Positions 1,210 to 45,581 of a stretch of 64,000 nucleotides of DNA are shown piece by piece. The position numbers and the translations under genes were made by a program. This DNA comes from Minisyncoccota bacterium (lineage in GTDB: Bacteria > Patescibacteriota > Minisyncoccia > 2-02-FULL-40-12 > GWA2-44-9). The DNA lies in the NCBI GenBank assembly GCA_035524755.1, contig DATKOD010000003.1:2206-66205 (forward strand), given 5' to 3'. The notes beneath the pieces are model-generated. The model was not told the DNA's origin and made no database searches. It saw only the letters and a program-made list of their open reading frames with translations. The first letter of the stretch is position 1. Each line of letters begins with the position of its first letter.

Positions 1210-1211
1210 AG

Positions 1212-1640
1212 TTAGACGCGGCGGGGCTTCGGCGCGCGGACGCCGTTGTGCGGCACCGGTGTCGAATCCATGAGCGAAGTGATGTTCAGTCCCGTGCCGG
1301 CGGTGCCGCGGATGGCCGATTCACGCGCCGGACCGACGCCTTTGATGACGATGCGGGCGTTGGTGAGGCCGAAGCGCTTGGCCTTCTCGATGGCGTCCTT
1401 GGCGACGAGGTTCGCGGCGTACGGCGTGGTCTTCTTGGAGCCCTTGAACCCGAGCAGTCCCGCGCTGGAGAACGCGATGACGTTGCCCGTCAGGTCGGTG
1501 ACCGCGATGAGCGTATTGTTGTACGTGATCGTGATGTGCACGATCCCGTTGAGGACCTGCTTCTTGGCCGTCTTCTTGGGCGCCGCTGCGGCGGCTTCGG
1601 TCTGGTCCCCTTCCTTGGTGATGATGCGTTTCTTGCCCAT
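1212..1640 (-). CDS. rpsK: 30S ribosomal protein S11
   Basis: 142 aa. The core (NGIVHITITYNNT..ITD..GN....SAG..GFKGSKK.TPYAA) matches S11. A Lys/Ala-rich N-terminal extension is present. Confidence 0.95.
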   Translation of the reverse strand: MGKKRIITKEGDQTEAAAAAPKKTAKKQVLNGIVHITITYNNTLIAVTDLTGNVIAFSSAGLLGFKGSKKTTPYAANLVAKDAIEKAKRFGLTNARIVIKGVGPARESAIRGTAGTGLNITSLMDSTPVPHNGVRAPKPRRV

Positions 1641-4577: not shown

Positions 4578-7539
4578 ATACCCGCATCAGCCGACGGAGG
4601 CTGCAGTAGCGACACGTACGGTCACCGCAATACCGGTCCCAAAACGCAAGAGAGCGGATCTCGTCCGCGGCATGCATGATGTCCCCTTCCAGGGCGAGCG
4701 CCGATGAAGACGGGATATTGAACACCTCGCGGTGATATTTTCCGCGTACGTCCGGCTCGACGAAGTCGATGACCCCTTCATGCATCCGGTACTTCCCGTT
4801 CTGCCATCGGTCCAGGAGCAACTTGTAGAACGTGAGCTGACGCAGATAGTTGCCATCCCCGTCCTTCACGGCGCCGCTGATCTGGTTGCGCGACTTCGGT
4901 GTGCCGGTCTTGTAATCCACGACGCGTACGAGTCCGGATGCATCCAGGAACTCCACTTTGTCGATCTTGCCGTTGACGAGCGTTCCGTCGGCGAGTTCGA
5001 TCGCAGGGATGCGCAGCTGGTTGATGATGTTCGGGTGCCACTCTTCATGGTACCGGTCGAAATATCCCGCCAATGCTTTCCTGCCGCGCGCTGATGCAAC
5101 ATCCAAGTCGGTCGTCTGCAATGCCTGATGGCGGATGAACCCCTCGAACAAGGCGATGAGATCGTCCCGTGAGCCGGGCGACCCATGTTGCACGAAACGG
5201 TCGAAGTACTCCTGCAGCGCACGATCGACGGCATTGCCGTACATCAGTGCGAAGACGGGTGCTTCCGGAATACGGACGAGGTTCGTATAGAAATACCGCC
5301 ATGGACAGGCACGGTAGTTATTGAGCGCCGTAACGGACAATCCCTGTCGCTCGAACAGTCCGACAAGGAATTCACGGTCAGCGCTCCTGGGGACCGGTGC
5401 AGGTGCGGGGCTGAAACGGATGGAACCGTCCTTCATCCAAGCATGCTCCAGGGGCGCCGTATCGATATGAGCGACCAACGAAGGTTCGATATCCGTCAAA
5501 TACCGAGCCGGCAGCTGTTCGGCGCCGTCGGCGTCACGCTTGCTGTAACTGATGATGACTTCGCGTCTCGCCCGCGTCAGCGCGACGTAGAACAGGTTCC
5601 GTTCCTCATCATCACCGCTCACTTCCATGCCCGGCAGCCGGATGAGCTGCCGCCGCTGTCGTGAACCCCAGTGGCCGTCGACCGCATCAATGATGTACAC
5701 GTAGTCGAATTCGAGGCCTTTGCTCTTATGAGCGGTCATGACCCGCACCCGTCCGGGCATCAGTTGACCGGCACCGGAGTTCAATACGATGCCCCGATCA
5801 CGCAAAAAACGCAGATGATCGGTGAATTGCGCCAGTGTGCAGTCGCGGTCACGGAGGACCCGGGACCTGAGCATGTCGTACAGGACGTGCAGGCGGGCGA
5901 GCGTCTCGGGAGCCTCCGGCGATGCGACGATGGCCGACAGGAGCCCGGATTCCGACACGATGGCTTCCAGTGCGGCACCGGCCGTCGGTTGAGATGCGGA
6001 TCTGGACCATGAGCCCAATAACCCGGCCACGGTGCGCAAGCGGTCAGCATCGTCGATACCGGCCTGATGGAGAAGCGCCGGCGAACGCATGACGTCGTAC
6101 GGGTTACGTCCCGAGCGGCAGAACTCGGTCAACTTGTAGACATCCAACGGGTCCACGCCGAGCACCGGCGCATGGAGCGCTTCCAGAAGCGGCTGAGGGA
6201 GGCCGAAATCACGCACCGCGTCGAGGATGCGGACGAGTTGATGCACGTATGGGTCGGCGGTCAGTTCCTGTTGCGTCGACAACGAGAACGGAAGACCGAG
6301 TTTCGACAAATATACCGAGAACGCCACCGCGTCGGCGTTGTCACGAGACAGGACGGCGATCCGTTCGGGTGCCGTACCTGCGGCGATGCGCCGGGCGATA
6401 TCGGATGCGACCGTCCAGTACTGGACGTCGGGAGTCTGGAGCGTCAACAGTGAGATGGGTCGGTCGTCCAATCCTGCGCGAGCCTGAAGAGCGACGGTAC
6501 CGCTCGGACGGATGTCTTCGGCGGCATCGACGATGAGCTGGCTCGATCGGTAGTTCTGTTCGAGTTCGATGAGCTTCACGTCCGGATAGAGCCGCTTGAA
6601 ATACAGGAAGTTCTCCAGCGATGCTCCCTGGAACCGGTAGATCGCCTGCTTCGCGTCGCCGACGACGAACAGGTTCGGACGTTCCCAGAACGAAGCGAGC
6701 AGTTCGATGACTTTGTTCTGCGCGTTGTTGGTGTCTTGATGCTCGTCCACCAACAGATACTGATACCGTTCCTGCAGGGTCAGACGCAGCTGTTCATCGG
6801 ACTCCAGTGCCCGCGCGACTTCCATGACCATGTCGCTGTAGTCATACAATCCTCGGGTGCGCAGCGCTTCCTGATACCGGGCGTAGAGGCGGACGAGCTC
6901 CCGCAGTTTCGCGTTCTGCTTCAACCGCTCCTGATACGCACCCTTCATCTTCCCCTTGTAGGTGCCCTTCTCATGGTAGAGATCGTCCGCTGCATTGATG
7001 CGTGAATCCTCGGCATCAGCCAAGGACGTCAACTGTCCAGGCGCCATGCCTTCACGCTTCAGGGTATTGATGGCACCGAGGACCGCTTTCAGATACAGGT
7101 CGGGCGCATTCACCGGCCGCAACAGCTCCAGACCGTCGGTGGTATCGATGAGGTGCTGCAACAGGACCGCCTGATCGGCATCGGTCAGTGATGCCGCGCC
7201 GGCCATCGCGCCGAACGATTCGGGATAGTCTTGGATGATGCGGTTACAGTACGAATGGAACGTCGTGATGGCGACGCGGTACGCATCAGGACCGATGATG
7301 TCGCGTAATCGTCCCTTCATCTCAGCGGCACCCGATTCAGTGAACGTGAGCGCCAGGATGGCATCAGGCGGCGTGTCGGTGCGCGCAAGGATATTGGCGA
7401 TACGGAGCGTCAGAATGCTGGTTTTGCCCGTCCCCGGTCCCGCCACGACCATGACCGGACCGTCGATGGCATCGACCGCCTCGCGTTGGCGGTCATTGAG
7501 CTGCCGGTAGAGTTCTTCGAATCGCGGTGTCGTGGGCAC
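4576..7539 (-). CDS. ATP-dependent DNA helicase (UvrD/PcrA/AddA family) fused to a C-terminal PD-(D/E)xK nuclease domain with a Cys cluster
   Basis: 987 aa. It has an N-terminal Walker A (VVAGPGTGKTS), UvrD-type motifs (LVDEHQDTN, QNYRS, VMTAHKSKGLEFDYVYI), a C-terminal nuclease-like region, and a terminal C-x4-C-x2-C (CGDRTCRYC) resembling the AddB/Cas4 Fe-S arrangement. Confidence 0.85.
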   Translation of the reverse strand: MPTTPRFEELYRQLNDRQREAVDAIDGPVMVVAGPGTGKTSILTLRIANILARTDTPPDAILALTFTESGAAEMKGRLRDIIGPDAYRVAITTFHSYCNRIIQDYPESFGAMAGAASLTDADQAVLLQHLIDTTDGLELLRPVNAPDLYLKAVLGAINTLKREGMAPGQLTSLADAEDSRINAADDLYHEKGTYKGKMKGAYQERLKQNAKLRELVRLYARYQEALRTRGLYDYSDMVMEVARALESDEQLRLTLQERYQYLLVDEHQDTNNAQNKVIELLASFWERPNLFVVGDAKQAIYRFQGASLENFLYFKRLYPDVKLIELEQNYRSSQLIVDAAEDIRPSGTVALQARAGLDDRPISLLTLQTPDVQYWTVASDIARRIAAGTAPERIAVLSRDNADAVAFSVYLSKLGLPFSLSTQQELTADPYVHQLVRILDAVRDFGLPQPLLEALHAPVLGVDPLDVYKLTEFCRSGRNPYDVMRSPALLHQAGIDDADRLRTVAGLLGSWSRSASQPTAGAALEAIVSESGLLSAIVASPEAPETLARLHVLYDMLRSRVLRDRDCTLAQFTDHLRFLRDRGIVLNSGAGQLMPGRVRVMTAHKSKGLEFDYVYIIDAVDGHWGSRQRRQLIRLPGMEVSGDDEERNLFYVALTRARREVIISYSKRDADGAEQLPARYLTDIEPSLVAHIDTAPLEHAWMKDGSIRFSPAPAPVPRSADREFLVGLFERQGLSVTALNNYRACPWRYFYTNLVRIPEAPVFALMYGNAVDRALQEYFDRFVQHGSPGSRDDLIALFEGFIRHQALQTTDLDVASARGRKALAGYFDRYHEEWHPNIINQLRIPAIELADGTLVNGKIDKVEFLDASGLVRVVDYKTGTPKSRNQISGAVKDGDGNYLRQLTFYKLLLDRWQNGKYRMHEGVIDFVEPDVRGKYHREVFNIPSSSALALEGDIMHAADEIRSLAFWDRYCGDRTCRYCSLRRLMRV

Positions 7540-15876: not shown

Positions 15877-15948
15877 GCCCCTGTAGTTCAATGGATAGAA
15901 CTCCAGACTTCTAAGCTGGGTATCGAGGTCCGATTCCTCGCGGGGGCA
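15877..15948 (+). tRNA. tRNA-Arg (anticodon TCT)
   Basis: Hand fold: acceptor GCCCCTG/CGGGGGC (one G-U pair), D-stem GTTC/GAAC, anticodon loop CTTCTAA, T-arm CGAGG-TCCGATT-CCTCG, discriminator A. CCA is not encoded. Confidence 0.75.
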
Positions 15949-15965
15949 CCGATTGAGAATTCAGG

Positions 15966-16036
15966 CGGGCCGTCGTATACCGGTAGTACACGTGCTTTGG
16001 GTGCACGGTGACTGGGTTCGATTCCCAGCGGCCCGA
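15966..16036 (+). tRNA. tRNA-Pro (anticodon TGG)
   Basis: Hand fold: C1-G72 acceptor CGGGCCG/CGGCCCG, anticodon stem CGTGC/GCACG with loop TTTGGGT, T-arm CTGGG-TTCGATT-CCCAG, discriminator A. Confidence 0.75.
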
Positions 16037-16047
16037 CAGTCGAAAAC

Positions 16048-16118
16048 GCGGGATTGGTATAACGGTATTACGTCACCCTTCCAAGGTGAAGACAGGGGTT
16101 CAATTCCCCTATCCCGCT
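16048..16118 (+). tRNA. tRNA-Gly (anticodon TCC)
   Basis: Hand fold: acceptor GCGGGAT/ATCCCGC, anticodon stem TCACC/GGTGA with loop CTTCCAA, T-arm AGGGG-TTCAATT-CCCCT, discriminator T. Confidence 0.8.
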
Positions 16119-16180
16119 CCGACGACAGAAAACCCCGCAATATTGCGGGGTTTTCTGTTTGGCTCTAGAACCAATACGGA

Positions 16181-22604: not shown

Positions 22605-23903
22605 TCACAGGTCGCTCTTGATGTTCGCCGCAAGCAGCTGGACGGAATTCGCATAGTTGACGCAGCTGGCGTTCGTGCTCGCAGCATTGCCGCAATAATA
22701 TTTCTTCGATGCCGCGATCTCTCCCGCACGGGTCTGGCTGCTGGCGCCGTCATTCGAAAGCTTCGCTGCGGCCGCGACGAACGCGTCTTCGATGTTCCAG
22801 GGATCGGGCAGCGCATGGCCGGATATCGCGGCGATCTGATCTCGATACCCCATCCACGTTGACGGCAAGAACTGCGCCGCACCCATGGCGCCTCCCCATT
22901 TGGAACCGCATGAGATCGGGGTCTGGAAAGGATCGCGGTTCAATTGCGCGGTGATACTGAGGAAATACGGGAGGTCTCTCGTGGGATTGATGCCGTAGGT
23001 ATAGATCTGGCCGTTCGTGATCCTCCGCGTCTCCCCGCTGGTCGAATCCACGATGTAGCACTTCCCGACGTTTGCCCCGAGCGCACTCTCTTGCTCGAGC
23101 TCCGCGATGAGGAACTCCGGCCGGATACCGGCTCCGATGGCGGCAAGCTGCCCATATTTGATCGCATCCTCTGCCGAGACGCCGTTCTGTTGCAGGTAGT
23201 AGATCTGTTCCTGCAGGCGTTGCAGATTCGTCTTGGTGGTCGCTACCAACTGTTGGTATTTGCTCTCTTGGCCCTGCGTCACCTTCAATAACTGGTTTTT
23301 GTCGGTTTTCGTCGTCGCAAGTTGACGCTGTTGCGCTTCTTGGAGCGCTTGAGCCTGCTCCAGACTCGTCTGTTGGTCCTGGAGCTGGGACTGTTGCTGG
23401 TCCAGTTGATCGCGCAAATCGCTGATGGACTGGATGGCCGTGCTCAGCGAGTCCTGCGTGCGCTGGATATCATGCACGCGGTCGAAGAAGTCCGACAGTG
23501 TGCCGCTCTGGAGCAGGATCATCGAGAGCGGTTGCAGATCGTTCTGCGCCGTTTCACGGAGCGCTGAGGCAAGCGCCTGCTGGTGCACCGAAATCTGCTG
23601 TTCCGCATTCTCGATGGCGGTCTGAGTCTGACCGATTTCAAGTCCGGTCTCATCGATGGACGCCTGGAGAGATTGGATCTGCGTGCTCAATACGCTGATC
23701 TGTGCGTTGAGCTTCGAGATTTCCGTCTGCAACGATTGCTTCTGTGTGCTCGCCTGGGTCAACTGCTCTTGCGCAGCGTCCAGCTGCGCCTGCAACTGCG
23801 TCTGCTTCTGTTGCAGGGCGGCAATCTCGTCCTGAACGGCCGCATGCGCCGTCAACGGAACGACGAGCGCACAAAGAGCGACGATTGCGACCAACCGCCT
23901 CAC
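22605..23903 (-). CDS. coiled-coil protein with C-terminal lytic murein transglycosylase (MltB/Slt35-like) domain
   Basis: A long Q/L-rich coiled coil follows the signal-like segment RRLVAIVALCALVVPLTAHA. The C-terminal region has GAMGAAQFLPSTW, the family-3 LT signature. A GTG start at ~23903 forms a GTGA overlap with the upstream stop; the track ORF extends to 23966. Confidence 0.8.
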   Translation of the reverse strand: MRRLVAIVALCALVVPLTAHAAVQDEIAALQQKQTQLQAQLDAAQEQLTQASTQKQSLQTEISKLNAQISVLSTQIQSLQASIDETGLEIGQTQTAIENAEQQISVHQQALASALRETAQNDLQPLSMILLQSGTLSDFFDRVHDIQRTQDSLSTAIQSISDLRDQLDQQQSQLQDQQTSLEQAQALQEAQQRQLATTKTDKNQLLKVTQGQESKYQQLVATTKTNLQRLQEQIYYLQQNGVSAEDAIKYGQLAAIGAGIRPEFLIAELEQESALGANVGKCYIVDSTSGETRRITNGQIYTYGINPTRDLPYFLSITAQLNRDPFQTPISCGSKWGGAMGAAQFLPSTWMGYRDQIAAISGHALPDPWNIEDAFVAAAAKLSNDGASSQTRAGEIAASKKYYCGNAASTNASCVNYANSVQLLAANIKSDL

Positions 23904-24346
23904 TGGACGATGATCGTACCGGTCTGCGACGCGTTCGATTCGTCCGCGTGGTTCAGGTAGTGGCACGTCTGTGAATCATTGAACGCCAATGAGTATGTCT
24001 CGCCGCGGTACAAGGAGCGGGTGGCGTCAAGTCCCGGGCAGCCGCCGGTGCCGCTGACGGTCATGGGCCAGAAGGCGATATCGGTGTCGTTGCGGAACGT
24101 GATGGCGTCACCGACCCGGATGGTGATGGTGGCCGGGGTCACGCCGGAAGCGGTCAGATGGACGATGTACCGCTGAGGTGTCGGGGTCGGCGTGGGGTAG
24201 TATCCGATGGGTGTGGGCGTCGGGGTCGGCGTCGTGGAATCGCTGGTCGAATCCGACCTCGTCGCCAGATACGTGATACCGACCGCCAGAAGCGCCACTA
24301 CGATGACCGAGATGATGAGTGTTCGTGAGGAGTACATAATCCCCAT
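23900..24346 (-). CDS. membrane-anchored hypothetical protein (TM, PT-rich linker, ~90-aa beta-rich domain, possibly cupredoxin/Ig-like)
   Basis: 148 aa with N-terminal TM LIISVIVVALLAVGITYL and a TPTPTPTP linker. The fold assignment is speculative. Confidence 0.6.
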   Translation of the reverse strand: MGIMYSSRTLIISVIVVALLAVGITYLATRSDSTSDSTTPTPTPTPIGYYPTPTPTPQRYIVHLTASGVTPATITIRVGDAITFRNDTDIAFWPMTVSGTGGCPGLDATRSLYRGETYSLAFNDSQTCHYLNHADESNASQTGTIIVQ

Positions 24347-24355
24347 GCTAACAGA

Positions 24356-24384
24356 TTGGCTGGCGGCTTCCAGAGGTATACAAT
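24356..24384 (+). promoter_or_regulatory. sigma70-like promoter (TTGGCT-17-TACAAT) placed to give a leaderless or near-leaderless mRNA for the pilin-like gene
   Basis: The -10 ends about 7 nt before the ATG at 24391. There is no SD. Confidence 0.4.
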
Positions 24385-24390
24385 GGGGCT

Positions 24391-24891
24391 ATGCACACAC
24401 GTCGGGTGCTCACTATTGGTGCCGTTCTCCTTATGGCAGTGCTTCCGGTCGTCGCGATTGCCGCTGATCAGCCGCTCCAATCAGGTTCTGATTCCCTCGG
24501 CGCAGCAGTAGCCTCGCTCTACCGATACGGCCTGAGCATCGTGGGTCTCGCAGTATTCGTTATGTTTTTGTATGCAGGACTCCTTAAGATGTTTTCGGAG
24601 ACTTTTATCAGCAAATGGGTACCGTCAGGTTGGGAAAAGAACTCTACCGTTGTCATTCAAGATGCGGTCATCGGGCTCATCCTCTTGTTCGCCTCATATC
24701 TCATCCTCAACACGATCAATCCTGATCTGGTGACGCCGCAGAAAGCGTCCCCGACGTCAACGACGACCTCGACCAGTTCTTCGGCGGGAACGGTGGGTCT
24801 TCCCACGAGCAGCAGCGTGCCGACGCCCGTACCGACATTCCAGGGCGGCGGAGGTTCATTCGGCGGCGGCGGTGCCTCAGGAACTTTTTGA
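24391..24891 (+). CDS. VirB2/TrbC-type (T4SS) pilin-like protein
   Basis: 166 aa with signal peptide MHTRRVLTIGAVLLMAVLPVVAIA. The mature part has two hydrophobic helices (LSIVGLAVFVMFLYAGLL; AVIGLILLFASYLILNTI) separated by a short loop, then an S/T-rich tail ending GGGGSFGGGGASGTF. The family call is by architecture only. Confidence 0.55.
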   Translation: MHTRRVLTIGAVLLMAVLPVVAIAADQPLQSGSDSLGAAVASLYRYGLSIVGLAVFVMFLYAGLLKMFSETFISKWVPSGWEKNSTVVIQDAVIGLILLFASYLILNTINPDLVTPQKASPTSTTTSTSSSAGTVGLPTSSSVPTPVPTFQGGGGSFGGGGASGTF

Positions 24892-24892
24892 T

Positions 24893-25090
24893 ATGGCATA
24901 CGTACTCGTCCTCCTTGCAGCACTCGGGATATTCGTTTACAGCACGCCTGCCCGCCAGGCGGTCAAGAATTCATTGGCAGCTATCGCGCAAAGCGCCGAA
25001 GTCAGACAGGCGGAAACCTACCTACGCGACAAAGTCACGGGATTCATCCGGACCGAGCTCCACCACGCGGTCGATGATGCGGTGAAATAG
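24893..25090 (+). CDS. small membrane protein (65 aa), hypothetical
   Basis: MAYVLVLLAALGIFVYSTPARQ... Its ATG sits 1 nt after the pilin-like stop (TGATATG). Confidence 0.4.
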   Translation: MAYVLVLLAALGIFVYSTPARQAVKNSLAAIAQSAEVRQAETYLRDKVTGFIRTELHHAVDDAVK

Positions 25091-25101
25091 TCCCCCATTG
25101 C

Positions 25102-25130
25102 TTGACTTTATGCACGTAATGTGCTATACT
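25102..25130 (+). promoter_or_regulatory. near-consensus sigma70 promoter (TTGACT-17-TATACT)
   Basis: Followed by GGAGG and the ATG at ~25148. Confidence 0.5.
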
Positions 25131-25147
25131 TCACCTTGGAGGCTGAT

Positions 25148-25288
25148 ATGAAGAAGCACACGCGCCTGGTGCTGTTCCTGATCGCACTGACGCTCGTGGT
25201 CACGGGCTCCCTGGGCTCGACCAAGCAGAACGCGTTCGTTCCCGGGGGCGGCCACTTCCGCGGACACGGCGCCAGCTCCAGCTGGTGA
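25148..25288 (+). CDS. small secreted Gly/His-rich peptide (46 aa)
   Basis: MKKHTRLVLFLIALTLVVTGSLGSTKQNAFVPGGGHFRGHGASSSW, with a signal peptide, a GGAGG SD, a strong promoter and a terminator. It is below the ORF-track cutoff. Confidence 0.5.
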   Translation: MKKHTRLVLFLIALTLVVTGSLGSTKQNAFVPGGGHFRGHGASSSW

Positions 25289-25299
25289 TGACACCCGAA

Positions 25300-25327
25300 G
25301 GGAGATCCATGACGGACCTCCCTTTTT
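25300..25327. terminator. intrinsic terminator (GGGAGATCC-atgac-GGACCTCCC-TTTTT), bidirectional (also follows the dsbA-like stop at 25336)
   Basis: 9-bp stem with one mismatch plus a T5 tract. Confidence 0.5.
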
Positions 25328-25335
25328 CATTGCGG

Positions 25336-26097
25336 TCATTTCGCCAGTGCCGCGTCGATGACCTGCTGGAATGCGGCGAACGGCTGTGCACCGACCAGGG
25401 AGACGCCGTTGATGAAGAAACTCGGCGTTCCATCGACTCCCAATGCGGTACCGTCGGCTTGGTCCTTATCGACTTCGCTCGCGTATTTCTGTGAGTCCAG
25501 ACACTGATTGAATTTCGTCATATCCAGACCGATGTTCGAGACCCACGTCTTGATGTCGCTGACACTGAACGATACCGTCCCGCCGCTGGGGTCTTTGGCA
25601 TCCTGCCCCGCGAAGATCGCATCGTGGAACTGCCAGAACTTCCCCTGCTCCGCCGCACAGGCACCTGCCAGCGCGGCAGGGCGTGCAGAGGGATGCAGGC
25701 TGGTCAGCGGGAAATCACGGAAGACGAGGCGGACCTTGCCGGTATCGATATAGGTCTTCTTCAGCAGCGCGAAGGTGTCGTTGTAGAACGATCGGCAGTA
25801 CGGACACTGGAAATCACTGAACTCCACGATGGTCACCTTGGCGTCCGCATTCCCCAGGACCGGATCTTCACCGTCCTCAAGCTTGCTGGTATCGATCGGT
25901 GCGGCGGTTCCGTCCGCCTGCTGGGCAGGAGCAACGGACGGGCCGTGGAACAGCGATGCGGTACCGCCCGAACCGACGAACAGGACACTGGCTGCGATCA
26001 ACAGACCTGCGACGATGATGGCGCCCGGAACGGACATGAACGGTTGCTTCGGCTCCACCGGCTTCGGCTGCTCGCTGACCATCGGTTGTTCATCCAT
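25336..26097 (-). CDS. DsbA-family thiol:disulfide oxidoreductase (membrane-anchored)
   Basis: 253 aa with an N-terminal TM, the thioredoxin motif FSDFQCPYC, and a DsbA-like remainder. Confidence 0.85.
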   Translation of the reverse strand: MDEQPMVSEQPKPVEPKQPFMSVPGAIIVAGLLIAASVLFVGSGGTASLFHGPSVAPAQQADGTAAPIDTSKLEDGEDPVLGNADAKVTIVEFSDFQCPYCRSFYNDTFALLKKTYIDTGKVRLVFRDFPLTSLHPSARPAALAGACAAEQGKFWQFHDAIFAGQDAKDPSGGTVSFSVSDIKTWVSNIGLDMTKFNQCLDSQKYASEVDKDQADGTALGVDGTPSFFINGVSLVGAQPFAAFQQVIDAALAK

Positions 26098-26107
26098 GAA
26101 TGGAAAA

Positions 26108-26494
26108 TTAGGGTGTTACTGACGGCTTCGCTCCCAACGACAATGGGGCGACTTCCACGAGGATGTTCGCCACCGGGTCGTAGAGGATCCCGATCTGCGC
26201 CGTATTGTAGATGAGGACCTTGTCGCCGACTTTCGCATTCTTGAAGAATGGCTGGCCGGCGAGCTTTGACATGTCGGTGACCGTCGCGACCACGGGTGTC
26301 TCGCCGGTCGGCAGTGCGTACAACTTCCCGACGGCGGCCACCAGCCGTGAAACTTCATCGAGCGCCGCCTGTTGTGCATCAACCGGTTTCCGGCCCGACA
26401 CATACACGTACGATGCGGTGCCGACCGCAACGACGATCAGGACACCGGCACCGATGACGACGGGAAGTTTCATGGATGGCTTCCAGGATATCAT
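26108..26494 (-). CDS. membrane-anchored hypothetical protein (128 aa)
   Basis: Starts at MISWKPSMKLPVVIGAGVLIVVAVG; the ATG overlaps the VKOR stop (TGATG). The track ORF 26108..26806 extends 5' antisense into VKOR. Confidence 0.5.
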   Translation of the reverse strand: MISWKPSMKLPVVIGAGVLIVVAVGTASYVYVSGRKPVDAQQAALDEVSRLVAAVGKLYALPTGETPVVATVTDMSKLAGQPFFKNAKVGDKVLIYNTAQIGILYDPVANILVEVAPLSLGAKPSVTP

Positions 26495-26913
26495 CAGTCG
26501 CGTTTCATGACTACGATACCGAGTATCAACAGCGTGGTCGATGTGAGCGCCGAAAGCATGCAGTACTGGCAAAACGCGTGGAGGATGAATGCTTGGACGG
26601 CGACGAAATACAGCGTACCCAGGAAGCCCGCCACCGATAGCCATGCCGCACGGTGCAGGAACCGCCGGTCCCATGAATCGAAGTACATGACCAACAGAAC
26701 GATCATCGCACCGTAGAACAACAAGCCGGTGGCCGAAACCGGTACTGGACCGATGGATGAGAATCCGCTGGCAAGCACCGCCTCGCATCCCTTCAGGATG
26801 GTACACGGAGGAAGTATTCCGCGCACATGCTCGGCGGTCAGGTACGCGGAATCCGCGAACCCGATGAGGGCCGTGATGAACATCCCGATGACGATCGCTT
26901 TACTGATGCGCAT
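26494..26913 (-). CDS. vitamin K epoxide reductase (VKOR) family protein, a DsbB-equivalent
   Basis: 139 aa with 4 TM and the active-site CTILKGC (CxxC) loop, plus conserved Cys pairs. VKOR fills the DsbB role in several bacterial lineages (established knowledge). Confidence 0.8.
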   Translation of the reverse strand: MRISKAIVIGMFITALIGFADSAYLTAEHVRGILPPCTILKGCEAVLASGFSSIGPVPVSATGLLFYGAMIVLLVMYFDSWDRRFLHRAAWLSVAGFLGTLYFVAVQAFILHAFCQYCMLSALTSTTLLILGIVVMKRD

Positions 26914-27652
26914 TGAGCGGTTGCAAAACCTTCGCCTTGAAATCGTCGAAACTGGACGGTTGTGCCATCTGCGAACCGTTCACGAAGAACGTCGGCGTTC
27001 CGTTCACACCAGAAGACACCGCGCTGTCATAATCCGCATTGACCGCGGCGATGACCGGTGCGGAATCGATATCAGCGGTGAATTTCGTCACGTCCAAGCC
27101 GAGGCTTCCCGCGTATGAAATGAATTGCGCACGCGCCGCCGAAGCCGACAGATTCTCCCAGGTGGTTTGGGTATCGAACAGCTTGTCATGCATCTGCCAA
27201 AACTTCCCCTGTAACGACGCGGCCTGCGCCGCCTGGGCCGATTCCTGCGCGTTGGGATGGATATCCCGCAACGGGAAGTAGCGGTACACGAGACGGACCT
27301 TGCCCGCGACCTGCGGATCGGCAAGCAGTTGGTTCACGACCGGGTAATACGCGGCGCATGCCGGGCATTCGAAATCGCTGTACTCCAGAAGCGTGACCGA
27401 TGCACTGGCAGGACCGATACTGATATCGGACGCCGATACCGGCACCGAAAGCGTGCCGTTCGTGGTGGTCGTGGGAACGCTGCCCGCTGCGCGATACATC
27501 AACCAGCCGATGCCGACGAGCACCACCGCAACGATCGCCCACATGATGGAGCTTCGCACGATACGGCGACGCCGGTCTTGCTGCGACTGCATCTGACGCT
27601 CCTCGCGCCGCGCTTGCCGGCGCTCTTCTTTGCTCGATATCCGTCCGTCCAT
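26900..27652 (-). CDS. DsbA-family thiol:disulfide oxidoreductase, second paralog
   Basis: 250 aa with a TM anchor and the motif YSDFECPAC. Confidence 0.85.
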   Translation of the reverse strand: MDGRISSKEERRQARREERQMQSQQDRRRRIVRSSIMWAIVAVVLVGIGWLMYRAAGSVPTTTTNGTLSVPVSASDISIGPASASVTLLEYSDFECPACAAYYPVVNQLLADPQVAGKVRLVYRYFPLRDIHPNAQESAQAAQAASLQGKFWQMHDKLFDTQTTWENLSASAARAQFISYAGSLGLDVTKFTADIDSAPVIAAVNADYDSAVSSGVNGTPTFFVNGSQMAQPSSFDDFKAKVLQPLNAHQ

Positions 27653-29997: not shown

Positions 29998-32232
29998 CTA
30001 GCGGGCGCTGCAGGCGCAGCTGACGGTCAGCGACGCGTCATGCAACCAGGCCGCTTGGACGCCGCATGCCGTGCTGGTGGCGCTGTCGGTGAAGTCGTAC
30101 TCGTAGGTGGTCACGCCCGGGATGGAGCTCTGGTAGGTGGCATCGTCGCTGCCGTAGTAGTTGCTCCACTTGTAGTTGTTGTTGGAGTTGCCGTGGCGAT
30201 GCGGCGTGTCGCATTCGTGGTTGGGGCCGTCCTGCCAGGTTCCGCCGTCGGCCGTGCAGGCGTCTCGCGCATGGCTCGAGCTGTCGTGCATGTAGTACAC
30301 GTACTGCGTCGGTCCCGTCTGCGGGAGCTTGTAGAACGCGTAGAGCGTCTGGCTGTTGAAGCCCGTGAACGTGGCGCTCGCGCCGGGGCCCAGGTTGAAC
30401 GTGCCGTTCGGGATGATGCTGTCCGCGGGGTCGTCCTTGTTCGTGGCCACCACGATGGCGTACGTGACCTGGTCGCTCCGGTTGTTCTTCAGGGTCCAGG
30501 TGTTGACCTTCGGGCAGTCCTGCGGCGGGATCGCGATGCTGTAGGTGTGGTCGTAGCTCTTCGTGCACTGCAGCTCCGACGGGCCATAGCTGACCACCTC
30601 GGTGTAGACGTCCGAGAAGGTGAAGGTCGAGCCGTAGGCCGGGCGGTTCACCACCTTGGGCAACGGATCGGACCACGTGCCGCCCGACGGGCGAACCGTA
30701 CCGCTGGTCACCTTCTCGGTGGTCGCGGTCTTGTCGGTGAGGTCGAGGTCACCACGGAAGTCCGGCGGGGTCGGCGTGTAGTCGGCACAGGTCTTGGTGC
30801 GCGGCGGGATGACCACGGGCGTCGTCACCGGACAGGTCAGCGAACCGCGAACGACCGTCAGAGTCGCGGTGAGGGTCTGCTGGCTGTCGGTCTGAGCGTA
30901 GCCGTGCGTCACGTTGAACGGATTGTTCTCGTTGTCGGACGCTCCGTCGCCGTATGCCAGCGACCCGGTGCCGGGGTTCACCCAGCTGCCATGGAGGCCG
31001 ACGTTGTACGTGCTCGCGATGCTGGCACGCACCGACTTGGCGTGCACCGAGTCCGCCCCCACCGTGTAGGTGCTCAGCTGCGGGTTCACGTCTCCGCATG
31101 TCGGGTCCTTCGCGGGCACCGTCTTGGTGAAGGGCTTGGAGACCGTGCACTTGAGGTTGTCCGGGCCGTAGCTCTTCGTGTAGGTGTCGCTGAAGGAGGC
31201 GTCCGGCTGTCCGAAGTTCGGACGATTGACCGTCGCCGGAAGCGCGGTGGACCACGTGCCGCCCGTCGGAGCGACCGTGCCGGCGTCGAACGTGTAGCTC
31301 GACGGTCCGGGGGTCACGCCCAGGTCACCCGTGATGGTCGGCGGGGTGTAGTCCTTGCAGGTGGGGTTCGTGCCGACCGTGACGGTGATGGACGGGTCGC
31401 ACTCCACACCGCCGCCGGTGAGCTTCAGCTTGATGGTGAACTTCTGCTGCGGCTCGGCGGGGTACGTGTGGCTCACGGGGACACCGTTGGTCGCCGATGA
31501 GGTCGTGTTGTCGCCCCAGTCGAGGACGCCATTGATCTTGGTGTCGCCGACCTTGTGGTTGAACTTCGGCGTGACCGTGATCGTGGTGCCGTCCTGCGTG
31601 TACGTGAGCGATCCGTTGATGGTCTCGCAGGTCACGCAGGGCTCGGGGTAGTTGAACACCACCCCGAACGGCCACCTCACCTCGTCGGTCGCATTCTTGA
31701 AGAGGCCGTCGTGCTGGTCCATGCCGCAGGAGTTGACGCTCACGTCCCACTGCGTCGTGAGCTTGACGCCCACGGTGGACGCCTTGAACGTCAGGTGGTC
31801 GTTCTGGTCGGCCCCGTTGCCGGAGCCGGCCGAACCGCAGCTGTTCTCGGGGGCGTGGAACGCGCCTGAGCGCAGCCATCCGTCCGAGGCGCTGATGATG
31901 CCCCAGGTGACGGTGTACTTCTTCGACGCGGTCACGACCTGGCAGCGGTTGTCGAGCAGATCGAGGTTCGTATCGAGCACGCAGAACGTCAGGGTCTTGT
32001 CGCGAGAGCTGACCGTCTCCTTGCCCTCGCAGATGCCGGAGCCGGTGACCGTCTGGCCCGTGCCGGATGCCGGAGGCGCCGGGACGGACGCGTTGGAACC
32101 GCTCGTGGCGGGGGCCTCGGAGACGACACTCGGGGAGGTGGACGTGTCGCCGCCCTTGTTGCAGGCGACGGGAACGAGGCAGACCGCCGTCACGACGGCG
32201 GCGATGCCCAGGAACGTCATCAATCGACGCAT
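29998..32232 (-). CDS. large Cys-rich lipoprotein with two internal ~100-aa repeats, hypothetical
   Basis: 744 aa. Signal peptide plus lipobox (LVPVAC). Two paralogous modules (TCKDYTPPTITGDLG... and TCADYTPTPPDFRGDLD...). More than 30 Cys. The segment has extreme GC with open frames on all strands. Confidence 0.75.
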   Translation of the reverse strand: MRRLMTFLGIAAVVTAVCLVPVACNKGGDTSTSPSVVSEAPATSGSNASVPAPPASGTGQTVTGSGICEGKETVSSRDKTLTFCVLDTNLDLLDNRCQVVTASKKYTVTWGIISASDGWLRSGAFHAPENSCGSAGSGNGADQNDHLTFKASTVGVKLTTQWDVSVNSCGMDQHDGLFKNATDEVRWPFGVVFNYPEPCVTCETINGSLTYTQDGTTITVTPKFNHKVGDTKINGVLDWGDNTTSSATNGVPVSHTYPAEPQQKFTIKLKLTGGGVECDPSITVTVGTNPTCKDYTPPTITGDLGVTPGPSSYTFDAGTVAPTGGTWSTALPATVNRPNFGQPDASFSDTYTKSYGPDNLKCTVSKPFTKTVPAKDPTCGDVNPQLSTYTVGADSVHAKSVRASIASTYNVGLHGSWVNPGTGSLAYGDGASDNENNPFNVTHGYAQTDSQQTLTATLTVVRGSLTCPVTTPVVIPPRTKTCADYTPTPPDFRGDLDLTDKTATTEKVTSGTVRPSGGTWSDPLPKVVNRPAYGSTFTFSDVYTEVVSYGPSELQCTKSYDHTYSIAIPPQDCPKVNTWTLKNNRSDQVTYAIVVATNKDDPADSIIPNGTFNLGPGASATFTGFNSQTLYAFYKLPQTGPTQYVYYMHDSSSHARDACTADGGTWQDGPNHECDTPHRHGNSNNNYKWSNYYGSDDATYQSSIPGVTTYEYDFTDSATSTACGVQAAWLHDASLTVSCACSAR

Positions 32233-41063: not shown

Positions 41064-42089
41064 CTATACCAGTTCTATGATGGCCAACTCCAGCGGCAAT
41101 GTCGGAATCGTGCTTGAACGGAGCTGACCGCGCGCGTTGGTGAATGCCGTGATAGCACGCACCAGCCACGCACCGTCTAACCCGGCGGCCAGCGCCTTGA
41201 CCGCCGCTTCGCGCACGTCGGCGAGCCCGGCCGACGCCAGGATGCCCGGGTCTATCTTCGTGAGCATCACCTGCCGCAGGAACTCCACTAGGCCACGGGC
41301 GACATGGTCCATGTCGGCGCCATTCTGTGCGACATCGGCAAGTTCACGTAGTGCCGTGACGCGATCATGCGCGGCCACCAGACGGACCAGGCGGTCGTAC
41401 CAACCCTGCGGCACCAGCCCGAGAACTGACTGTACCGTAGCCGTCGTGATACGCGCACCGTCGGCATGGCTCACCAGCTTGGTGAGCATGACCTCGGCGT
41501 CACGCACCGCGCCGTCTGCGGCCGCTGCCATGGTCGCCAATGCGTCCGGCTCGACGTCGAGTTTCTCCTTCTTCACGATGTAGGCGAGCTTCGTCGTGAT
41601 CTGCGCCTGGGTCAGCTTGCGGAAATCGAACCGCTGGACGCGCGACAGCACCGTCGGAATGATTTTATGCGGTTCCGTGGTCGCGAGGATGAACAGCGCA
41701 TGGGCCGGCGGCTCCTCCAGAAGCTTCAGGAGCGCGTTGAACGCGTCTTTGGACAACATGTGCACCTCGTCCACGATGAAGACTTTGTAGGGCATCAGCG
41801 CGGGCGATGATGCGGCCGTCTCTTTGAGCTGCCTGACGTCGTCGATGCCGCGGTTGGACGCCGCATCGATCTCCACGAGGTCCATGCCCGGATCCCCGTC
41901 GGGCTTCAGGCCCATCGCGGCTTTCGCGAAGATGCGGGCTACGGTGGTCTTCCCGGTGCCCCGCGGTCCCGCGAACAGGTATGCATGTCCGATGCGGCCG
42001 CTGGAAAGCGCGCCCTGCAGCGTGCGGACGACGTGCTCCTGACCGACCACCTCGGACCAGGTGGCGGGGCGGTACGTACGGTACAACAT
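41064..42089 (-). CDS. dnaX: DNA polymerase III subunit gamma/tau, short form (341 aa)
   Basis: Walker A (AGPRGTGKTT), DEVH box and clamp-loader motifs. It lacks the tau C-terminal domains. Confidence 0.85.
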   Translation of the reverse strand: MLYRTYRPATWSEVVGQEHVVRTLQGALSSGRIGHAYLFAGPRGTGKTTVARIFAKAAMGLKPDGDPGMDLVEIDAASNRGIDDVRQLKETAASSPALMPYKVFIVDEVHMLSKDAFNALLKLLEEPPAHALFILATTEPHKIIPTVLSRVQRFDFRKLTQAQITTKLAYIVKKEKLDVEPDALATMAAAADGAVRDAEVMLTKLVSHADGARITTATVQSVLGLVPQGWYDRLVRLVAAHDRVTALRELADVAQNGADMDHVARGLVEFLRQVMLTKIDPGILASAGLADVREAAVKALAAGLDGAWLVRAITAFTNARGQLRSSTIPTLPLELAIIELV

Positions 42090-42719: not shown

Positions 42720-45149
42720 TTAGGTGGTACGTTCGAAGCGCTGCCGGATTTCTGATTCCACTTCTTCCCGCGGACGACCGAATTTCGCATGGCTGGATTC
42801 GATGATGGCATCGCGAACGGCCGGATCGCCTTTCGCCAGTCCGATCTCCGCGAGACCGCGCATGCTCGTAGGCCGCGCAACCTGACTGTTCACCAGCATG
42901 GATACATACGCATGGAAATTATCGATGTTGGAAACATCGTACGGAGAGAACACCGGTTCGAACTTCGTCTTCAGGAGCGGCATCTCGGCATCCTCCGGAC
43001 TGACACGGTACACCACCATGGTGCCGACGTTGCCGAAGACCGAATCGCGGATGGCGTCGTCAAGCTGCTTGATGAACTGATGCGCCATGATGAGACATAG
43101 GCGATACTTCCGGGCTTCCGCGAGGATGACCGAAATGGAATCCGTCGTGAAGTTCTGGAATTCATCCATATACAGATAGTGATCGGGCAGGTCAGCGCGT
43201 TTCGTATCGCGCGCCAATGCCGCACGGCGTAGTTTGCCGGTGATGACCATGCCCAACAGGTTCGCGTTCATATCACCGATCTTCCCTTTCGACAGGTTAC
43301 AGATAAGTATCTTCCGGTTCTCGATGACATCCCTGAAATCGATGACGCTCGTCTGTTGGTTCACGATGGGCCGCAGAAAATCATTGGACGTGAACGTATC
43401 GATCTTGCTGGTGACATATCCGGCGAAATTCGCCAGCGACTGGTCGCCGGTCATCTTCGTGGCTTCCAATTCCCAGAACTGCTTCACGACCGTGTTGGAC
43501 TCGTGCGCCAATAGGTCATTGCGGAATGCCTCGTCGACGAACACCCGTGACATGTCGGCCAGCGTCGGTACCCGCCGCTCGTAGTTATCGAGCAACAGGT
43601 ATGTCGCATTCTTGAAATACCGCTCGAACATCGGTCCGCCGGTCTCCTTGAGGTCGTACAGCTTCGACATGATCTCGAATAATTCGTCGATGATGAGCGT
43701 TTTATCCTGCGGATTGGACGGGTCGAACTCGAGCATGTTCAATCCCAGCGGGAACGACGTATCGCCGGGGTTGAAATAGATGACGTCGTCGATCCGTTCC
43801 TTCGGGACGTTCGCTAACACCCACTCCGCGAACGAGCCGTGCGGATCCAGTACCGTAATGCCGTCCCCCGACTCCAAATCCTGGGGTATCATCGACTGCA
43901 TCGTGACCGTTTTTCCGGTTCCGGTCTGTCCGATGATGTACATATGACGCCGACGGTCTTCGCGCGCGATGCGAAGCAGCGTCGACTGGCCCCGGTATTC
44001 GTTCATGCCGAACGCGATGCCATGCTCGGGAAGACCCGGTGGCGGCTCGGCCGTCTTGAAATTCACGAACTTGACCTTCGGCATGACCGCCATGCCGGTG
44101 GGAAAGTGGTACACGCTGGTAAGTTCCTCCGCCGACAGCGTGACCGTCTGAGCGTCATCGAACAGGCGAAAGGCGAATTCGAATTCCAACCGCTCCAACG
44201 CCTTGCCGGACAGTTTCTTCACGTTGAATCCGTTCCGGTCAGCCGTCGTATATTGCGAGAACGCGCCGGCGACATCGTTCATGATGGCATCCGCACGTTC
44301 CGGTGAGGACGATGAGGCGAGGATGCGAATGTTGCAGTCGAACAGCGGGCGTGATGCCTTGGACTGCAACGCGGTGATGAGTTTCTGTTCGAATTCGGTG
44401 GCGACCTTCGGCGGTTCTTTGAGCGCGGCGTCCGAGTCTCTCTTTTCATCCTTCTTCGGCGGATGCTGGGCGAGTTTGAGCGCTTTATGGAAATCATTGC
44501 CCGCCTGCATCTGACGTGCGGTATCGGACGCGAGTTTCCGGATCCCGGCATGCGACGACGGCCGGACCGCGATCTGGATGGCGACACCTTCGCCCTCCTT
44601 CTCGATCCTGCCCATCGCGCTCACCAGCGGACCGAGCGGATCGCTGGGCAGCTCGGTATAGGTCAGTACCGGCAGGATGGGATCCTCACGCTGGGTCAGG
44701 TAGGCGCCCGCCGAGCCGCCCTGCGGATTGAAAATGTTGTAATCCGGGCTCCGTTGAACGGTGGCGGTCGGAAACACGCCGACCATCTGCTTCTCGAACT
44801 GATCAGCGAACTTCGACGGCACCGCGGCGTAGAAATGGATCTGCTCGCCGATATGGTGCACCGCCATTTCCAGCACCAGGTACGGATCGCCGAACAGGAA
44901 CTTGTTCCACCCTTTGATCTTCAGGTTTGCCACCGACGCATACAACTGCTCCATGACCGCGATGAGTTTGCGTTCGTCCTTCTCCCCTCCCTCGGCGGCG
45001 AACCGCGGCAGAAGGAACAGCAGCAGCTGCATGTCCAGAGAACGCGACAACGACGTACGCGAACGGAGACCGTTGACGACGATCAACGCGGCGACGGCCA
45101 GAATGACCGCGACCAACGCCAAGAGTACAAGCGTGATGACGGGCGACAT
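42720..45149 (-). CDS. membrane-anchored AAA-like ATPase of the VirB4/TraC/HerA (DUF87) superfamily
   Basis: 809 aa with an N-terminal TM. Walker A (IIGQTGTGKT) at ~residue 405, Walker B (LYMDEFQNF), and a HerA/VirB4-like AEARKYRLCLIMAHQFIKQL motif. It has a ~380-aa non-ATPase N-terminal region. Confidence 0.7.
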   Translation of the reverse strand: MSPVITLVLLALVAVILAVAALIVVNGLRSRTSLSRSLDMQLLLFLLPRFAAEGGEKDERKLIAVMEQLYASVANLKIKGWNKFLFGDPYLVLEMAVHHIGEQIHFYAAVPSKFADQFEKQMVGVFPTATVQRSPDYNIFNPQGGSAGAYLTQREDPILPVLTYTELPSDPLGPLVSAMGRIEKEGEGVAIQIAVRPSSHAGIRKLASDTARQMQAGNDFHKALKLAQHPPKKDEKRDSDAALKEPPKVATEFEQKLITALQSKASRPLFDCNIRILASSSSPERADAIMNDVAGAFSQYTTADRNGFNVKKLSGKALERLEFEFAFRLFDDAQTVTLSAEELTSVYHFPTGMAVMPKVKFVNFKTAEPPPGLPEHGIAFGMNEYRGQSTLLRIAREDRRRHMYIIGQTGTGKTVTMQSMIPQDLESGDGITVLDPHGSFAEWVLANVPKERIDDVIYFNPGDTSFPLGLNMLEFDPSNPQDKTLIIDELFEIMSKLYDLKETGGPMFERYFKNATYLLLDNYERRVPTLADMSRVFVDEAFRNDLLAHESNTVVKQFWELEATKMTGDQSLANFAGYVTSKIDTFTSNDFLRPIVNQQTSVIDFRDVIENRKILICNLSKGKIGDMNANLLGMVITGKLRRAALARDTKRADLPDHYLYMDEFQNFTTDSISVILAEARKYRLCLIMAHQFIKQLDDAIRDSVFGNVGTMVVYRVSPEDAEMPLLKTKFEPVFSPYDVSNIDNFHAYVSMLVNSQVARPTSMRGLAEIGLAKGDPAVRDAIIESSHAKFGRPREEVESEIRQRFERTT

Positions 45150-45550
45150 CAGGGAGCGGGCTCAACCTTCCGGCGTTCCAGCAGTTGCGAGTGGAATTCA
45201 TCGGCGAGCACGTCGTGCAGTGCATCGATGAGCGCGGGATTGCCGGAAGCGACAGCCTGGTCGATGGCGGCCTGCAGGCTCTGCGTGAACACCACGTTCA
45301 CCAGTTGCTGCACCGGGCCGGCCAACGCCGGGTCCTGCCAGCTCGGCGTGCCTGCCACGGGTTGCGATGCCGCTGGCGCCGGTTGGTAGTTCGGCACTGA
45401 CTGTTGGATGCGTTCGCCGACCGCCTCATGCACTTCTGCCCGTTCATACGGCGTCGATGCGTCAGCGCCCAGCTCCGCGCGTTTCTCCTGGAGCCTGCGT
45501 TCCAGGTCTGCGATCTCCGTCTCGATCGGACCGGTGGTGTTCTCAGCCAT
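45149..45550 (-). CDS. hypothetical protein (~133 aa)
   Basis: Its stop overlaps the ATPase start (ATGA). No recognised domain. Confidence 0.45.
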   Translation of the reverse strand: MAENTTGPIETEIADLERRLQEKRAELGADASTPYERAEVHEAVGERIQQSVPNYQPAPAASQPVAGTPSWQDPALAGPVQQLVNVVFTQSLQAAIDQAVASGNPALIDALHDVLADEFHSQLLERRKVEPAP

Positions 45551-45581
45551 GCACATCCATTGTAGCACACCCCGTGCTACA

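Follow-up and report, generated by a model that had tools for sequence, protein, structure and literature searches.

A small gene beside a VirB2-like pilin gene in a Minisyncoccota bacterium encodes a putatively secreted peptide that is probably a paralogue of the pilin tail

The window analysed here is the whole stretch of 64,000 nucleotides (nt) from contig DATKOD010000003.1 (positions 2,206 to 66,205, forward strand) of the Minisyncoccota bacterium assembly GCA_035524755.1, a metagenome-assembled genome of an uncultured soil member of the Paceibacterota. A small gene for a 46-amino-acid (aa) peptide lies on its plus strand, with a VirB2-like pilin gene of a type IV secretion system (T4SS) and a gene for a 65-aa protein on one side and a convergent DsbA, 121-aa protein, VKOR and DsbA cassette on the other. 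The predicted mature part of this peptide is probably a paralogue of the C-terminal tail of the nearby pilin. The small gene and the pilin gene comprise the following features.

25102–25130, plus strand: sigma-70-type promoter with -35 TTGACT (25102–25107), a 17-nt spacer and an extended -10 TGcTATACT (25122–25130); scan score 10/12 plus TG
25138–25142, plus strand: Shine-Dalgarno sequence GGAGG, 5 nt 5′ of the ATG, invariant in alignment A1
25148–25288, plus strand: small gene, ATG at 25148–25150, 46 codons and TGA (25286–25288), product MKKHTRLVLFLIALTLVVTGSLGSTKQNAFVPGGGHFRGHGASSSW, as read from the open reading frame (ORF)
25148–25216, plus strand: predicted Sec signal peptide, residues 1–23, from a heuristic n/h/c analysis with the -3/-1 rule; inferred cleavage site
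25217–25285, plus strand: predicted mature peptide STKQNAFVPGGGHFRGHGASSSW, 23 aa, homologous to the pilin C-terminal tail
25256–25285, plus strand: conserved C-terminal decapeptide FRGHGASSSW, consensus [FY]RGHGA[ST]S[SD]W, followed by the stop
25297–25327, plus strand: intrinsic terminator with a hairpin (25297–25325) and a T-run (25323–25327); fold -15.8 kcal/mol, z = -3.6
24391–24891, plus strand: VirB2-like T4SS pilin gene, 166 aa, the putative parent of the peptide, two genes upstream of the peptide gene

The initial annotation, made from the sequence of the window, had described a promoter, GGAGG, ATG, a 46-aa ORF and a terminator between a pilin-like locus and a DsbA/VKOR cassette. Each of these elements is found at its position, and the 65-aa gene also lies in between. 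The -10 hexamer TATACT occupies 25125–25130 and TG stands ahead of it at 25122–25123, as read directly in the window. The scan found two promoter-like sites in 2.5 kb against 0.8 expected, and a single match alone is not significant. In all seven lineages described below, TTGACT-17-TGnTATACT/TATAAT is kept (TATA.T is invariant in alignment A1), GGAGG stands 5–8 nt upstream of the ATG, and the reading frame, the stop directly after Trp and the terminator hairpin are retained. Since the signals and the frame are conserved across all seven lineages, the promoter match is more than chance, and the view of an independently signalled small gene is borne out. The inferred 5′ untranslated region is only ~11 nt long. 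The stem arms of the terminator, GGGAGAUCC/GGACCUCCC, are followed by UUUUU, and a simple consensus terminator scan overlooked this hairpin because of one A·C mismatch in the stem. Three terminator hairpins of relatives fold at -16.8 to -18.5 kcal/mol, a GC-rich hairpin with a T-run is visible by sequence inspection in 7/7 lineages, and one stem pair is altered on both sides, from GC to AU, in the consensus fold. The small gene is monocistronic, with its own promoter, Shine-Dalgarno sequence and intrinsic terminator, and is apparently strongly expressed, the level being inferred from the sequence. It is recorded in GenBank as the hypothetical protein HUO75397.1 / VMU12_00555, and six metagenome contigs encode the same unchanged peptide with identical synteny.

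Diverged relatives were reached via the neighbouring genes, through DsbA homologues of 85–56% identity and pilin homologues of 65–60% identity. Orthologues of 39–47 aa were found in six further lineages at unchanged position and orientation, giving seven lineages in all (related loci carry L numbers).

Window: MKKHTRLVLFLIALTLVVTGSLGSTKQNAFVPGGGHFRGHGASSSW
L081: MRKHTRLLMFLVTLILLVASSGGSTASNNTFVPGGGHFRGHGASSSW
L007: MKARIVMIVVALVLVLSSALEPNQRSSFVPGGGQFRGHGASSSW
L079: MKARIGMLLVALVLLVAGSLEPTTRSFIPAGGHFRGHGASSSW
L011: MNRTVRLALLLVALALVIGGAVQSTANNHRTFRGHGASSSW
L012/L013: MLKKAAKIAVFLVLMCACVGAQASAPNFGYRGHGASSSW
L084: MSKKLQLAIVLAILAIGAAAVASSLSSHGFVPGGGHFRGHGATSDW

Over these lineages, the identity of the neighbouring DsbA drops to 56%, and the indels of the peptide gene are always multiples of three. 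RGHGASSSW is invariant in six lineages (seven sequence variants, alignment A3), and the motif ends with GATSDW in L084, the seventh. The codons of the decapeptide vary synonymously (Arg, CGC/CGG; Gly, GGA/GGC/GGT/GGG; Ala, GCC/GCA; middle Ser, TCC/TCG/TCA), and the residues at these positions are unchanged in the six lineages. Since the motif codons change synonymously without residue change, selection acts on the amino acids, and on the alignments this purifying selection is strong and concentrated at the last ten residues. The initial annotation had named a reading frame that is not conserved in homologues as the observation that would speak against the gene; the frame is conserved. Each antisense frame contains a stop in at least one lineage, and for this reason a 71-aa antisense ORF of the window, which gene calling gives as 96 aa in L079/L080, was rejected. 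We conclude with high confidence that the small gene is a real protein-coding gene. Its richness in Gly and His, put forward earlier as the defining property, does not extend to the relatives: the GGG(H/Q) segment is deleted in L011 and L013, and only one His is conserved, within the RGHGA[ST]S[SD]W end.

The codons of this end show one further pattern. In GCC AGC TCC AGC TGG (window 25269–25285), six lineages share both AGC Ser codons without change (ACC and GAC in L084), and the outer AGC codons with their flanks form an inverted repeat, CCAGC/GCTGG, with a 4-nt loop (CCAGC-UNNA-GCUGG). Among the neighbouring genes, an invariant Ser uses one codon in all lineages in 1/12 cases only. The fixed AGC codons may reflect chance, codon bias or an extra constraint at the nucleotide level.

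The N-terminus of the precursor has the three-part build of a Sec signal peptide by heuristic analysis, in agreement with the earlier prediction of a signal peptide. In the window, the n-region is MKKHTR, the h-region LVLFLIALTLVV and the c-region TGSLG. The seven variants, parsed by the same heuristic, have 2–3 Lys/Arg residues, an uncharged stretch of 14–21 residues with a strong hydrophobic core (~12–18 residues), and small residues at the candidate cleavage sites. The candidate sites are SLG↓S (window) and GGA↓V (L011) by the heuristic, and AQA↓S (L013) and AVA↓S (L084; AVA↓SS) by eye. The features of a precursor for Sec and signal peptidase I, namely a charged n-region, an h-region of ~7–15 or more residues and small residues at -3/-1, are thus all present by this heuristic. 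The sequence of the N-terminus is almost free to vary in alignment A3 and its n/h/c character is kept; read from the alignment, this is the manner in which signal peptides evolve. The precursor is probably exported by Sec, and the predicted mature peptides span 16–25 residues among the lineages. The mature string of the initial annotation, given as ~22 aa, has 23 residues, and its functional C-terminal part stands.

The window pilin has no direct match in Pfam, and 21/26 of its homologues match PF18895 (T4SS_pilin) and 6/26 match PF04956 (TrbC/VirB2). The AlphaFold2 model of the pilin consists of a signal helix, helices 33–68 and 85–109, and coil at residues ~115–166 with a pLDDT (predicted local distance difference test) of ~50, and a Foldseek search of the model against the PDB returned generic helical hairpins only. 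An S/T/P-rich linker and a Gly-rich tail, ...VPTFQGGGGSFGGGGASGTF, are encoded at ~24730–24888, with the last 20 codons at 24829–24888. The pilins of the clade share this end, an S/T/P linker of 45–60 residues followed by F-x-x-G-G-G-x-F-G-G-G-G-A-S-G-T-F-COOH (homologues P0124–P0131 were compared for the tail). Other pilin homologues stop just after ...LNTINPDLV or carry large extra C-terminal domains (P0136, P0148–P0151). To judge from these sequences, the stretch that these pilins carry at the C-terminus seems to be a display module that varies from homologue to homologue.

The peptide and the pilin tail share the pattern F-x-x-G-G-G-x-F-x-G-x-G-A-S-x-x-aromatic-COOH. When the two are aligned without gaps and anchored at the C-terminus, the window pair is identical at 9/20 positions, a value reached by 23 of 100,000 composition-preserving shuffles. 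The corresponding values are 9/20 and 41/100,000 for the L081 pair and 7/20 and 352/100,000 for the L079 pair, and the L010 pilin (...APFVPGGGSFGGGGASGTF) and the L007 peptide (...SSFVPGGGQFRGHGASSSW) are identical at 11/20 positions, which none of 100,000 shuffles reaches. The C-terminal ungapped alignment of the latter two is as follows.

L010 pilin: NAPFVPGGGSFGGGGASGTF
L007 peptide: RSSFVPGGGQFRGHGASSSW

A hidden Markov model (HMM) of the pilin tails of other lineages, searched against the six-frame translation of the window (1731 fragments), had the window pilin as its best match (E = 5.7e-7), followed by the small ORF (E = 3.2e-4) and then by a match with E = 2. Over 27 loci of the candidate phyla radiation (CPR; 4979 fragments), the pilin-tail HMM and a peptide HMM find only each other's families. 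In L084, the earliest-branching lineage, both ends carry S-D-aromatic, GASSDF in the pilin and GATSDW in the peptide. The homology covers a lineage-specific extension outside the core domain of the pilin family, and the peptide is without the two-helix pilin core, consisting of a single hydrophobic segment and then a polar tail of 16–25 residues. Since the tests of T4SS pilin membership by family HMM and core helices fail, with homology confined to part of a family member, the peptide is related to the VirB2-like pilin family without being a member. The earlier suggestion of a pilin-associated minor subunit comes closest among the four roles proposed, as the tail homology supports the association; a subunit is not supported, there being no pilin core and no match to a pilin model. 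On this sequence comparison, we consider the peptide to be probably a paralogue of the extracytoplasmic, predicted-disordered pilin tail, and of the tail only.

Several points weigh against this assignment and against the function built on it. The anchored identity is not above shuffles in L011 and L013, the peptide HMM recovers the pilin tails weakly (E = 0.059–0.59), the similarity sits in Gly-rich, low-complexity sequence, and the tail comparison was picked after the data were seen. Under composition correction, BLASTP of the peptide against the pilin does not reach significance, which is to be expected of 20 Gly-rich residues, and the anchored shuffle tests and HMM searches took its place. 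The N-terminal DNA of the two genes is weakly similar in a lineage-specific manner: the window pair has one 15/18-nt match, which 26/2000 shuffles reach, and L081 has none. The pilin homologues P0127 and P0129 (~60% identity) are without a Gly-rich tail as recorded, and the trees described below carry no support values. Export and cleavage rest on the heuristic n/h/c analysis, and the step from tail homology to mimicry of the tail is pure inference.

In every lineage with the peptide, the pilin is tailed. Both pilin tail and peptide are missing from L046, L043 and L044, with no room for a small ORF between the convergent genes in L046 and L043, and L082/L083 have a tailed pilin (...GGGGASGDSGESW) without the peptide. 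Quick neighbour-joining trees of DsbA and of DsbA plus VKOR group the peptide-bearing lineages together with L084 basal; the DsbA of L084 is 56% identical to that of the window, and those of the peptide-less outgroups are 52–58% identical. The simplest history suggested by these sequences is a single event in the common ancestor of a small Paceibacterota clade, in which a promoter and a signal sequence were joined to a copy of the 3′ end of the pilin gene. The resulting cassette of ~240 bp, set between two convergent genes, would have persisted from then on. In the peptide-less L044 (6733–7018), the gap between DsbA and a 79-aa gene is 286 nt and holds two terminator-like hairpins and no ORF with a signal peptide.

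Strict-motif DNA scans gave 28 raw matches in GTDB genomes, 32 in JGI metagenomes and 0 in IMG/VR. After in-frame translation, the real ones are one genome (L023, of 185,579 GTDB species genomes) and two JGI metagenome contigs (L050, L063), all of the same clade, and none lies on a viral contig in IMG/VR. The scan pattern demanded W-S-N at the three Ser codons and leaves the L084 type (T-S-D) uncovered, and this distribution is a lower bound. A word-indexed search of 5.8 billion protein clusters returned only the peptide itself, and an exhaustive phmmer search of 1.84 billion representatives returned one relative, P0152. The peptide has no family match in Pfam (four variants, even at E ≤ 10) or NCBIfam, profile searches of Pfam, NCBIfam, Rfam and the PDB gave nothing or noise (Anophelin, YoaJ, Ref66, tau PGGG repeats), and no Rfam 15 covariance model came close to its gathering score over 24300–26200. 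The 5.8-billion-cluster database did not yield the orthologues below 46 aa, which were recovered through synteny. In relatives, the small gene escaped the gene callers: over it they placed a spurious antisense ORF of 96 aa at 5653–5943 (minus strand) in L079 and at 1132–1422 (minus strand) in L080, and no gene is called around 3049–3168 (minus strand) of L013 in the NCBI record GCA_035499235.1.

Taken as a whole, the account of a genuine small gene that encodes a secreted paralogue of the pilin tail, acting as a copy of the tail module outside the cell, has in our estimate a probability of about 0.55. The precursor (a signal peptide of ~23 aa and a mature part of 23 aa) would be exported by Sec, and signal peptidase I would free a peptide of 16–25 residues; alternatively, the uncleaved N-terminus would serve as a membrane anchor. 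Outside the cell, the free aromatic-ended C-terminus would bind the same partner as the end of the pilin tail, and this soluble or anchored copy of the module would compete with or supplement the pilin-borne tails as a competitor, adaptor or second substrate. The peptide would owe an affinity of its own to the fixed Arg, His and Trp. A specific partner is suggested because FGGGGASGTF changed to FRGHGASSSW and was fixed thereafter. We put forward this tail-mimic function tentatively, at clearly less than even odds. It is more doubtful whether the CPR episymbionts of this clade secrete a sequence-fixed copy of the tail end that tunes the pilus- or T4SS-mediated contact with a host or kin, for example through competition for a tail receptor or a tail-processing enzyme.

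CPR bacteria depend on surface machinery for life on other microbes. If the proposal is true, the peptide would be the first described 'pilin-tail mimic' and among the first functional secreted micro-peptides in Patescibacteria. The fixation of Arg, His and Trp where DsbA is only 56% identical suggests a short linear motif with a specific partner, and in its action the peptide seems most like a secreted short-linear-motif peptide. The locus offers two linked handles, a pilin with a lineage-specific, predicted-disordered tail and a short aromatic end motif, and a separate mini-gene supplying that motif alone, and a synthesisable 10–25-mer could be used to search for the partner. It would also be a clean example of how part of one gene can give rise to a new small gene next to it, and it shows how such genes get missed.

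Known systems resemble this arrangement in part. In RP4 TrbC and Ti VirB2, C-terminal residues are removed before cyclisation, and the C-terminus can be a recognition element for the maturation enzyme. A free copy of the tail could be a second substrate or a competitor in such processing; however, no TraF-like peptidase is seen in the locus, the pilin has the 45–60-residue S/T/P linker, and there is no sign of cyclisation. The type IV pilin of Geobacter is split into two genes, PilA-N and PilA-C, which is alike in that a C-terminal region of a pilin is a separate secreted polypeptide beside the pilin gene. That is another pilus system, and the pilin of the window is not split: its own tail is still in place, and the peptide duplicates only ~20 residues of it in diverged form. 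SecM, MifM and VemP combine a signal or transmembrane (TM) segment with a conserved C-terminal motif and lie upstream of a gene on the same mRNA, which they control. Their short-ORF layout is similar, whereas downstream of the peptide ORF lie a terminator and then a convergent gene. Phr, PapR and NprX of Firmicutes are made as precursors of ~40–57 aa, in which a Sec signal and a variable spacer precede the functional, conserved oligopeptide at the C-terminus. The peptide has the same layout, but no adjacent RRNPP receptor; it belongs to another phylum, has no sequence relation to them and derives putatively from a pilin tail. With VirB2/TrbC pilins, it shares an N-terminal signal-type sequence and the homology of its mature part to the pilin tail. 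As in the VirB2/TrbC pilin arrays of Patescibacteria, it lies near a pilin, with one non-pilin gene between; unlike the members of those arrays, which are full-length with ~25% identity, it is a tail-only fragment and cannot be a polymerising subunit (PMC12102498). Both VirB2-like pilins and arrays of them occur widely among Patescibacteria; the pilins are often duplicated and proved essential in the one system tested, and no description of tail-only pilin paralogues was found in that survey of Patescibacteria T4SSs (PMC12102498).

The layout shared with the Phr peptides also permits a different function, that of a diffusible signal which is exported by Sec, trimmed and sensed through its invariant C-terminal oligopeptide by a receptor encoded elsewhere. 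The signal peptide, the linker of variable length, the invariant C-terminus with a free carboxylate and the strongly signalled, monocistronic gene all fit such a signal, and PAS/HisKA kinases and an AI-2E-family transporter lie 7–10 kb off. These kinases belong to a wider conserved synteny that is also present in peptide-less lineages, however, and in none of the seven lineages is the peptide gene flanked by a TPR/HTH receptor, Opp importer or membrane sensor kinase; its neighbours there are drawn from the pilin, the 65-aa protein, DsbA, the 121-aa protein and VKOR. The defining features of the Phr/RRNPP group are thus shared as far as the signal peptide and the C-terminal oligopeptide, without the adjacent receptor gene, and homology to a structural pilin tail suggests an origin in surface interaction. 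We consider a Phr-like signal unlikely, and the signalling role of the initial annotation keeps this low probability. A slightly lower one is assigned to an uncleaved bitopic micro-protein (N-in, C-out), whose external tail would modulate the T4SS, DsbA/VKOR or a sensor kinase. MgrB has a similar size and a comparable layout, and the length of 39–47 aa, the K/R-rich N-terminus, the one hydrophobic segment and the conserved external C-terminus ending in Trp would suit such a protein. A cleavable signal fits better, since the short hydrophobic cores are followed by small residues at -3/-1, including the canonical AQA↓S of L013 and AVA↓S of L084. Conservation is lowest in the hydrophobic segment, which would be unusual if it docked into a complex.

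The variability of this segment also speaks against a type I toxin, as the hydrophobic part is conserved in such toxins. A type I toxin, a leader or arrest peptide like SecM, MifM and VemP, or an ORF incidental to a small RNA or DNA element would each mean that no functional protein is made. The signal/TM-like N-terminus, the conserved C-terminal motif and the immediate stop are reminiscent of arrest peptides, and the outer AGC Ser codons within their inverted repeat, identical in six lineages (1/12 for the neighbours), would suit a nucleic acid element. However, the same strand carries no gene downstream: a terminator begins at least 11 nt past the stop codon, and DsbA, which comes next, is convergent. 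The distance from stop to hairpin ranges from 11 to 17 nt or more, too variable for masking of the terminator by a stalled ribosome to work consistently. The only Rfam antisense match is noise (21 bits against a gathering score of 92, E = 0.32), the fold of the whole transcript is ordinary (z = -1.2), and the synonymous changes in the motif reveal selection on amino acids. We regard this group of explanations as very improbable. The antimicrobial (bacteriocin-like) and metal-binding roles of the initial annotation have just as little in their favour: the peptide is small, has a signal peptide and contains His and Gly in the window copy, and the neighbouring 148-aa protein has a faint cupredoxin-like (amicyanin) match (E = 0.007). 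With the deletion of GGG(H/Q) in two lineages and one conserved His, there is no conserved His cluster to bind a metal. As for a bacteriocin, the peptide lacks Cys and a GG-leader, its mature region is neither amphipathic nor hydrophobic, no immunity, ABC-transporter or modification genes occur in any locus (~10 kb), and no bacteriocin family in Pfam or NCBIfam is matched. The defining features tested for class II bacteriocins, ribosomally synthesised and post-translationally modified peptides, arrest peptides and type I toxins are accordingly not found in the peptide. Two further ideas were rejected: a substrate of DsbA/VKOR, as no Cys is conserved in the peptide, and a lipoprotein, as a Cys occurs only in the h-region of one variant and is absent from its close relative L014.

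The gene that separates the small gene from the pilin gene is the following.

24893–25090, plus strand: gene for a 65-aa single-TM protein, between the pilin and peptide genes

L084 keeps the peptide but has no such gene between it and the pilin gene, and the 65-aa protein is probably not needed for the peptide. The convergent cassette (25336–27592, minus strand) encodes a DsbA of 248 aa, the 121-aa protein without known identity, a VKOR of 139 aa and a second DsbA of 230 aa, and is conserved with the pilin locus over much of this Paceibacterota group. The 121-aa gene is absent in L043, L082 and L084 and is replaced by an 87-aa thioredoxin-like gene in L046. Divergent from the pilin gene, the 148-aa membrane-anchored protein (23900–24346, minus strand) is conserved in all related loci; in its L084 homologue, the His ligand of a type-1 copper site beside the Cys is not evident by eye.

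An 809-aa T4SS ATPase or coupling-protein-like gene (TrwB_AAD_bind, T4SS-DNA_transf, DUF87) is located at 42720–45149 (minus strand), ~17 kb from the pilin locus, and adjoins the gene for DNA polymerase III gamma/tau (41064–42089, minus strand). This placement echoes the report of Patescibacteria T4SS genes near replication genes (PMC12102498). Two tandem glycosyltransferases of the PMT_2 family (GT-C, protein O-mannosyltransferase-like) at 45408–47144 and 47148–48932 (plus strand) could glycosylate Ser/Thr-rich surface linkers such as that of the pilin. Elsewhere in the window, a 744-aa protein without a Pfam match is encoded at 29998–32232 (minus strand) in a region whose strand composition is unusual, with a GC skew of +0.11 and an AT skew of -0.23, and is kept in relatives (L012, 1880–4114). 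The G+C content of the window is ~60%, which seemed high for a Paceibacterota genome. A tight tRNA cluster, Arg(TCT), Pro(TGG) and Gly(TCC), lies at 15877–16120 (plus strand).

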